Shown here: positions 1,805 through 2,288 of the stretch, piece after piece
Layout of the letters: every line of letters begins with the position of its first letter
Position numbering within the stretch: the stretch's first letter is position 1
IMG/VR virus record: IMGVR_UViG_2585427735_000018
Location: 1 to 7,614 of that record
Direction: 5' to 3' (one strand)
DNA: 7,614 nt
Source of the DNA: a virus
Taxonomy: Duplodnaviria; Heunggongvirae; Uroviricota; Caudoviricetes
Notes under the pieces: generated by a model
The model's database searches: none
The model's input: the letters and a program-made list of their open reading frames with translations, nothing else
Told to the model about the DNA's origin: nothing
Made by a program: the position numbers and the translations under genes

Positions 1805-2081
1805 TACCATGTCGCAACAACACAACGATACGGCAACCGCCTGATTCACCGTTGCGATGACCGCTTAGATCCGCAGCTTGAATTTCGGCAGGCTCCGGGG
1901 AGTGCGAGGGGTGAAACGGACGCGTGAACGTCGGTGTAACCAGCTGAAATCAACTCAACACCTCATACCTCAGTCGCTTCAACGAGGCGGCTTAGTTATG
2001 ACAACCGGCGGCCATCCACCGCCTGAATACGCGCAGAAGTCTCTATATGTTCAGCAGCCCAGCTTACGGGCAGGAGTTTTT

Positions 2082-2288
2082 ATGGTTCATCAACATTATG
2101 GAACGCAGACCGTTAATCGAGGTGCGGTCATGCCAGGAATGCTGGTCAAACACAAAGATGGTACCTGGACTGCATCAGCTAATTTACGCGGACGGCTTTA
2201 TCTGCATCGCGGCATCGAGCGCACTTATACCCGTGATTTGCTCGTGGAAGTTTTTCTCGACGGACGCGGTAACGGCCTGAATCACTAA
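2082..2288 (+). CDS. Hypothetical early protein at the kil position (68 aa from the SD-supported ATG; the frame is open from 1878, alternative ATG at 1998)
   Basis: AGGAG (2072-2076) lies 5 nt before ATG 2082. The stop (2286-2288) sits 76 nt upstream of the gam ATG, where I recall the lambda kil stop to be; sequence identity to lambda appears to begin only at about 2282. No similarity to a known family recognised. Confidence 0.4.

Follow-up and report, generated by a model that had tools for sequence, protein, structure and literature searches.

Organization of the locus

The window, that is, the whole stretch of 7,614 nucleotides analyzed here, corresponds to the leftward early region of a lambda-like prophage, and its letters run in the same direction as transcription from pL. 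It contains the following features.

1-548: IS1 copy, which cuts into the Ser/Thr kinase gene.
602-1438: truncated Ser/Thr kinase gene, the 5' end of which has been removed by IS1.
1441-1605: conserved ORF of 54 residues (phrog_4063, function unknown), directly after the kinase gene and ending at the terminator-like hairpin 1604-1625.
1604-1625, plus strand: intrinsic terminator-like hairpin with a T-run, from a terminator scan, which ends the transcription unit of the kinase gene and the 54-residue ORF.
About 1700-1805: operator/promoter region.
1759-1804, plus strand: candidate pL, with a -35 element TTGATA at 1776-1781 and a -10 element TATTAT at 1799-1804.
1759-1780 and 1787-1802: operator-like palindromes ATCAATAGCAATAAGTATTGAT and AATAGCAATAGCTATT, respectively, overlapping the candidate pL, by our own reading of the sequence.
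1812-1963, plus strand: lineage-specific non-coding leader of about 150 nt, about 97% conserved in 44 relatives.
1964-2000, plus strand: hairpin 1 of a two-hairpin RNA motif, from covariation and RNAalifold.
2007-2023, plus strand: hairpin 2 of the motif, GGCGG - loop CCAUCCA - CCGCC, from fold prediction and RNAalifold.
2024-2081, plus strand: proximal kil leader, with the GCGCAGAAGTCT box, a small hairpin (GCCC 2057-2060 with GGGC 2068-2071) and the Shine-Dalgarno sequence AGGAG at 2072-2076.
2082-2288, plus strand: kil, 207 nt, encoding a 68-residue protein of the KilR family (phrog_294, NF008465 and the RefSeq/PGAP gene call).
2282-2363, plus strand: junction with the lambda-type gam/bet/exo module, with lambda homology from the CAC TAA of kil.
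2364-2660, plus strand: gam, 98 residues (ORF list; phrog_259, E 4e-60).
2666-3451: bet, after gam.
3448-4128: exo, after bet.
Downstream of exo: several small ORFs, then xis (6347-6565), then int.
4189-4211, 4784-4802, 6069-6116 (6069, 6103) and 6297-6316, plus strand: terminator-like hairpins with T-runs inside the leftward operon, from the terminator scan.

The kinase encoded by 602-1438 is eukaryote-like (Pfam Pkinase match, 2e-34) and matches the PADLOC defence-kinase models PD-T4-6 and mad6. Its gene occupies the place of lambda rexAB, and an intact version of it is present in E. coli MIN6. The terminator-like hairpin at 1604-1625 is kept in phages 4A7 and Perceval, just 5' of the block that these phages share with the window. 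On the minus strand, between the early genes and xis, a 200-residue predicted membrane protein is encoded at 5294-5896; the last 88 residues of this protein match phrog_1416 (function unknown). Terminator-like hairpins lie on both sides of this gene, which may be a moron, i.e. an added gene with its own transcription signals.

The candidate pL is the best sigma-70 match in the region. Its two hexamers, TTGATA from 1776 and TATTAT ending at 1804, are separated by 17 nucleotides and agree with the consensus at 10 of 12 positions. Transcription from it would start at about 1809-1812. The first-pass annotation had described the interval between the promoter and gam as compressed relative to lambda, with a length of about 450 bp. 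The description is correct because the ATG of gam at 2364 is about 560 bp from the candidate promoter, whereas OL1 and gam are about 2.4 kb apart in lambda, but the distance itself has to be revised from 450 to 560 bp.

The same annotation had filled this interval with one short ORF, and the details given for that ORF hold. The ORF listing has a plus-strand frame of 136 residues at 1878-2288, for which a TTG start was assigned mechanically. The frame opens after a TAG codon at 1866-1868, has its first in-frame ATG at 1998-2000 and stops with TAA at 2286-2288. The arginine-rich stretch reported for it, GVRGVKRTRERRCNQLK, is present, and the strong Shine-Dalgarno sequence AGGAG lies five bases ahead of the ATG at 2082. 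The stop coincides with that of lambda kil, as had been proposed, because the lambda alignment begins at the last two codons, CAC TAA. Nevertheless, the interval is not one gene. It consists of a KilR-type gene (2082-2288) and a non-coding part upstream of it.

The kil gene

The 68-residue product of 2082-2288 matches phrog_294 ('Kil protein for bacterial septation inhibition') over its entire length, with residues 1-68 aligned to positions 13-80 of the 83-position profile (E 1.3e-37). It also matches the NCBIfam model of Rac KilR, NF008465 ('FtsZ inhibitor protein'), with an E value of 1.8e-17 and residues 1-68 on profile positions 1-70 of 73. The score of this match, 63.1 bits, is below the curated cut-off of 92 bits. 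The product is a KilR homolog that lies outside the narrow subfamily for which the model was made, that of Rac KilR. End-to-end alignment with Rac KilR gives about 33% identity, and twelve columns are invariant in the KilR-family alignment (M1, H5, G7, R13, P18, G19, H24, S32, A33, Y40, L59 and G63). All of the 36 distinct homologs from other loci start at the equivalent methionine and are 67-76 residues long, except for one read-through fusion. The same 207-nt gene has been called by RefSeq in phage 4A7 and by PGAP in E. coli MIN6.

The protein is not related to lambda Kil. The lambda Kil profile, PF06301, gave no match to it in a Pfam search at E values up to 1, although lambda Kil itself, used as a positive control, scores 72 bits, and BLASTP produced no alignment between the two proteins. 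The earlier proposal of a Kil-like host-interaction protein stands for the C-terminal 68 residues of the frame as far as the Rac KilR family (phrog_294) is concerned, and falls for the lambda Kil family.

Rac KilR is toxic. It inhibits FtsZ and, at higher dose, MreB, and its C-terminal tail is needed (PMC12482147). The length of this tail has been reported to matter for MreB targeting (PMC12482147). By homology to Rac KilR, the product of 2082-2288 would block FtsZ-ring formation.

From position 2282 onward the window matches many Stx and lambda-like phages at 98%. The KilR-type gene (window 2282-2288) and the unrelated lambda-type kil (lambda 33187-33195) both end with CAC TAA at the junction with the gam module. 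Histidine is the final residue in most KilR-type homologs, and CAC TAA between kil and gam looks like a fixed module boundary.

Public records of this locus disagree about the protein, which is given as 68, 96 or 139 residues. The 139-residue version, from the Perceval record, starts at an ATC codon at 1869. Phage records 1W and 3W also belong to this set, and the locus has been deposited even as a 'membrane carboxypeptidase (penicillin-binding protein)'. The evidence presented here favors the 68-residue KilR-type gene and settles this split.

The non-coding upstream frame and the lineage-specific leader

A pattern scan of viral contigs retrieved 120 loci with a conserved piece of the leader, 44 of which have the window-type leader. 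In these near-identical relatives the DNA is still about 97% identical, but the arginine-rich frame is closed or shifted in 20 of the 44, because a C-to-T change creates a TAG at 1971-1973 in 16 of them, three carry a 5-nt duplication and one has a 1-nt insertion. The frame has no start codon before 1998, and a protein-family search with it gave no match. The arginine-rich part is non-coding, and the frame is open back to 1869 only by accident.

The leader upstream of the two-hairpin motif, 1812-1963, has a G-rich middle and C-rich, G-poor stretches at 1812-1850 and 1932-1960. A 5' hairpin is predicted between TCGCAAC 1812-1818 and GTTGCGA 1851-1857, although the predicted folds of the leader are no more stable than those of shuffled sequences (z -1.5 and -0.6). 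Phages with two other operator/promoter types share the sequence from about 1812, the predicted transcription start, or from about 1846 (approximately +35) onward.

The 5' end of the leader reads CAACAACACAAC at 1815-1826. It resembles CACAACA, which PMC4104026 quotes as the consensus of targets for the GcvB R1 seed, and this resemblance is a lead only. The known prophage sRNAs AgvB/AsxR and the Pas sRNAs were considered and rejected; they map near pR' and the late genes and not in the leader. The leader of Rac kilR in E. coli K-12 (locus L131, 4406-4503) and window positions 1897-1938 have only GGGAGUGCG and CGGU(U)GUAA in common. Judged from the sequences, homology between the Rac sRNA KilS (b4833) and the window leader is doubtful.

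A two-hairpin RNA motif ahead of kil

The leader region contains a conserved structure of two hairpins between positions 1964 and 2023. Hairpin 1 is closed by a helix of CAUA 1964-1967 with UAUG 1997-2000, continues with the pairs C1969-G1995 and U1970-A1994 and ends in a 9-bp upper stem (1972-1980 with 1984-1992). The GAGG at 1984-1987 and the ATG at 1998 are both buried in it. In an alignment of 56 distinct sequences, 98.3% of the cells of hairpin 1 are paired. Compensatory double changes are found in seven of its pairs (116 cells). The covariation score was reached by none of 500 shuffles, and in controls with the structure slid along the alignment 31-54% of the cells were paired. RNAalifold independently gives the same fold of hairpin 1 and adds the CAUA/UAUG closing helix and hairpin 2. 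In the window copy the two hairpins together (1964-2026) have a predicted energy of -23.7 kcal/mol (z -3.6).

The pattern scan forced invariance of the 3' half of the motif. For this reason, an independent set of 23 loci was fetched with a narrow alignment of the Kil protein alone and then searched with a model of the motif. The motif was found in nine of the 23, from Citrobacter, Siccibacter, Scandinavium, Huaxiibacter and one further Enterobacteriaceae genome, and the HK639 phage locus, which was searched alongside, also scored. Other carriers are phages phi80, HK225, ENT1 and KO-TP1, besides HK639, and the loci numbered L011 to L130.

The Kil-retrieved loci are informative about the nature of the element. 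In one of them (L155) the closing helix is GAUA/UAUC, so that the ATG is lost while the pairing is kept; in another (L154) it is CAUAUC/GAUAUG. In three more (L147, L153 and L159) the linker between the hairpins is shorter by 4-5 nt, and the peptide read from the ATG is an unrelated one, but hairpin 2 is retained as GCGG-CUAUCCA(A)-CCGC. Throughout the Kil-retrieved loci, hairpin 2 is either GCGG-CUAUCCA-CCGC or contains G-U pairs; no double compensatory change was seen in it in this set. A second conserved box, GAAGTCTTGTATTAAC, is reached from ATG 1998 in all three frames, in a ratio of 6:3:2 by spacer class. The GCGCAGAAGTCT box is likewise conserved at the nucleotide level, whichever its frame relative to ATG 1998. 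Because the pairing persists while the ATG, the linker length and the frame vary, the element is an RNA structure and not a conserved peptide.

Of 5426 complete E. coli genomes, 2226 (about 41%) carry the motif, and none has it annotated. The motif lies directly after a terminator, a putL or a long leader, and ahead of the kil/recombination module; a Kil homolog follows within 1.5 kb in 83 of 102 loci. Among 64 loci with other upstream contexts, 60 have a hairpin with a T-run immediately 5' of the motif, preceded by very diverse genes. A putL of the HK639 type is located directly 5' of the motif in two loci, and about ten more have putL within the same locus. The motif is flanked by C-rich, G-poor stretches. 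Downstream of it, the region of AGGAG and ATG 2082 is only weakly structured (z -0.15). A search by eye for pairing partners of the hairpin-2 loop or the GAAGUCUUGUAUUAAC box found nothing convincing.

Rfam has no family for the motif, and a text search of the literature for its sequence or its peptide found no paper. The element 1964-2023, which can be written as CAUACC, the covarying long hairpin, UAUGACAACC and then GGCGG/CCAUCCA/CCGCC, may represent an undescribed class of cis-acting RNA of lambda-like prophages, a proposal to which we give slightly less than an even chance. Its fixed position, the conserved top of the stem (UUC/GAG) and the hairpin-2 loop could, speculatively, point to a specific recognition event. 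Equally speculative are the roles that can be listed for it, namely RNA processing or 5' stabilization, Rho loading or termination, and the masking of a vestigial initiation site.

Two readings of ATG 1998

The ATG buried in hairpin 1 invites two explanations in terms of translation. According to the first, Kil would exist in two isoforms, the 68-residue protein from ATG 2082 and a 96-residue form from ATG 1998, in which MTTGGHPPPEYAQK and the residues after it are fused in frame and the hairpin limits the long form. The exact 96-residue sequence is widely deposited (the 96- and 68-residue clusters have 472 and 431 members, respectively), GAGG is 10 nt upstream of ATG 1998, and an N-terminal mCherry fusion is known to alter the toxicity of KilR only slightly (PMC12482147). 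Of 44 close relatives, 43 also have ATG 1998 in the reading frame of kil. This last observation carries little weight, however, because it holds only for a single group whose members are about 97% identical; in other families the frame is closed after 16-24 codons, the ATG is missing or the peptide is a different one altogether. Furthermore, both GAGG and ATG 1998 are paired in the stable, covariation-supported structure described above. A long isoform is thus unlikely.

According to the second, the mini-ORF that starts at 1998 (MTTGGHPPP...) would be a translated leader peptide, and ribosomes stalled at its polyproline would govern termination (Rho-dependent or intrinsic) or translation upstream of the kil module. 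Neither the ATG nor the PPP codons vary among the loci that the pattern scan retrieved, but this invariance was forced by the search pattern. The ORF is at least 16 codons long in all 93 loci examined. A U-run directly follows hairpin 2 in a minority of variants, the HK639 record annotates a terminator at the spot after hairpin 2, and a 'rho-dependent tL1B' is annotated about 110 nt further on in the phi80 record. The Kil-retrieved loci argue against a peptide: the ATC that replaces the ATG in L155 is accompanied by a compensating change in its pairing partner, hairpin 2 survives the shortened linkers that yield unrelated peptides, and the second conserved box is met in every frame. We therefore give the leader peptide little credence.

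Antitermination and the origin of the compressed layout

The leader of the window was compared with known antitermination elements. No boxA-like site with up to three mismatches was found in 1812-2081, and an Rfam scan of the whole window at E values up to 1 gave no match, which agrees with the earlier failure to see a boxB-like hairpin by inspection. The conserved hairpin itself is unlike nut: it has a 9-bp stem with a variable loop of 3-4 nt and no adjoining boxA. Among the 70 features annotated in phage 4A7 there is a Q-like antiterminator, but an N gene is absent.

Because related loci carry an HK639-type putL in the place of the leader, the leader was also examined as a relative of put. 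In this reading the 150 nt of 1812-1963 would act as an antiterminator RNA in the manner of HK022 put and stand in for N, in a phage family with no annotated N and with terminator-like sites downstream. The leader is directly downstream of pL, and phages of different immunity types share it from approximately the transcription start onward. A position just downstream of an early promoter is where a put element would be found, but location alone does not define the put family. Smith-Waterman alignment of the leader with HK022 putL gave no match. A put covariance model (R1), constructed from eight put sequences, gives 96 bits to HK022 putL, 54 to putR and 101 to the sequence of locus L020, but has no hit in either leader, that of the window or that of 4A7, at E values up to 10 with filters off. 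A second, putR-like copy of the leader was sought in the rightward operon of 4A7, where an inverted-repeat search and local alignment did no better than with shuffled sequences. The predicted folds do not exceed shuffles, as mentioned above, and the sequence variation is too low for covariation. The leader is not a member of the put family; a functional analogy to put is speculative, has nothing positive to support it and appears improbable to us.

Finally, the arginine-rich stretch had been proposed to belong to a divergent antiterminator, and the region to be a deletion remnant. KRTRERR is superficially like an arginine-rich motif, but the N-like reading was rejected on the conservation of a frame that has no start codon, is interrupted in nearly half of the relatives, matches no protein family and is accompanied by neither a boxA-like nor a put-like element. 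IS1 damaged the kinase gene and the prophage has therefore undergone rearrangement, but the recent loss of N, ral, ea10 and cIII from this particular prophage is very unlikely because the compressed layout recurs in sequenced, named phages and in many genomes without IS1, no N is annotated in 4A7, and neither a boxA-like site nor a put RNA was found in the leader.

The block 1606-2400 recurs at 92-97% identity in about 16 phage records, which include the ICTV genus Bievrevirus (4A7, 4C10 and Perceval) and the PhiR phages. It is also found in at least 30 complete E. coli genomes in which the kinase gene is intact. In the rightward operon of 4A7, cro is followed by a YdaT-domain protein, O and P, and hardly any space is left between the genes. 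The layout is compressed still further, again without N and also without the two-hairpin motif, in prophages of Silvania, Enterobacter and Kluyvera (L141, L142 and L144), where a promoter-like region is only about 95 nt upstream of kil, a spacing that also speaks against a recent deletion. In the roughly 160 nt before kil of these three loci, the promoter-like region is followed by a 5' hairpin (CAUCGACAAC...GUUGUC) that resembles window 1812-1857. Because N-less leftward operons that begin with kil are found in the Bievrevirus and PhiR phages, in E. coli genomes and in the prophages of these three genera, they are thus a recurrent natural design.

Relationship to known systems

Rac KilR (b1352) is a close characterized counterpart of the window protein. 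The two share their invariant residues over a full-length alignment, although Rac KilR has 73 residues and the window protein, with 68, has a C-terminal tail that is shorter by about five. Both genes are in a leftward early operon, upstream of recombination genes and preceded by a long leader. However, Rac kilR neighbors recET whereas kil of the window adjoins a lambda-type gam/bet/exo module, and the Rac leader carries the sRNA KilS instead of the two-hairpin motif. Lambda Kil (PF06301) has the same map position, the same reported target (FtsZ) and the same CAC TAA junction with the gam module, but it has no sequence relationship to the window protein, is only 47 residues long and comes after N, ral, ea10 and cIII.

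The Bievrevirus and PhiR phages contain the same pL-leader-kil-gam block as the window. They differ in the genes between cI and pL, where they have an ASCH-domain or membrane protein in place of the kinase, and the window has the additional IS1 in its kinase gene. The put elements of HK022 and HK639 occupy the same place directly after pL, and the HK639-type putL is immediately 5' of the same two-hairpin motif, but the window leader has neither a match to the put covariance model nor a second putR-like copy. In phi80, according to the annotation of JX871397, the order is N, tL1A, the two-hairpin motif, 'rho-dependent tL1B', a small ORF and kil. Three elements precede the motif in phi80, namely an N gene, a nutL site and a terminator, and the window lacks all of them.

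Interpretation

In the reading that we prefer, and to which we assign a probability of roughly 0.85, the candidate pL near 1776-1804 drives a transcript of which the first 270 nt or so are leader, and Kil is translated from 2082. The analysis shows the homology of the protein, the conservation of its start site, the non-coding character of the upstream frame, the native layout and the structure of the RNA. That the promoter is used, where its transcript begins, that Kil is active and that the leader may have a part in regulation are inferences. Kil, apparently the first gene of the pL operon, would head the leftward early operon of a Bievrevirus- or DLP12-like lambda-like prophage, and its 68-residue product would be made from ATG 2082 behind AGGAG. 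The untranslated leader RNA would extend from about 1811, the presumed transcription start, to 2081. Its 150-nt lineage-specific part would take the place in which relatives have either an N-type or other gene with an intrinsic terminator, or putL. The long hairpin of the motif would sequester GAGG and ATG 1998, the start of the 96-residue form. On prophage induction, transcription from pL would lead to the production of Kil together with Gam, Bet and Exo, and Kil, as a homolog of Rac KilR, would act on FtsZ-ring formation at that stage.

Public records already contain both the gene and the layout in annotated form, which makes this part of the finding ordinary. Only the leader motif, which is unannotated, merits further work, as a modest new lead. 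If the motif is what it appears to be, it could gate the toxic kil module, for example by loading Rho or terminating transcription, by serving as a site of processing or stabilization, or by acting as a translational operator.

The analysis also shows that the absence of N, nut and put from the leftward early operon is natural in an entire group of lambda-like phages. This raises the question of how N-less phages transcribe past terminator-like sites to distal genes such as xis and int. The covarying and very common leader motif, which has escaped annotation, is a testable candidate for the means by which prophages control a toxic inhibitor of cell division.
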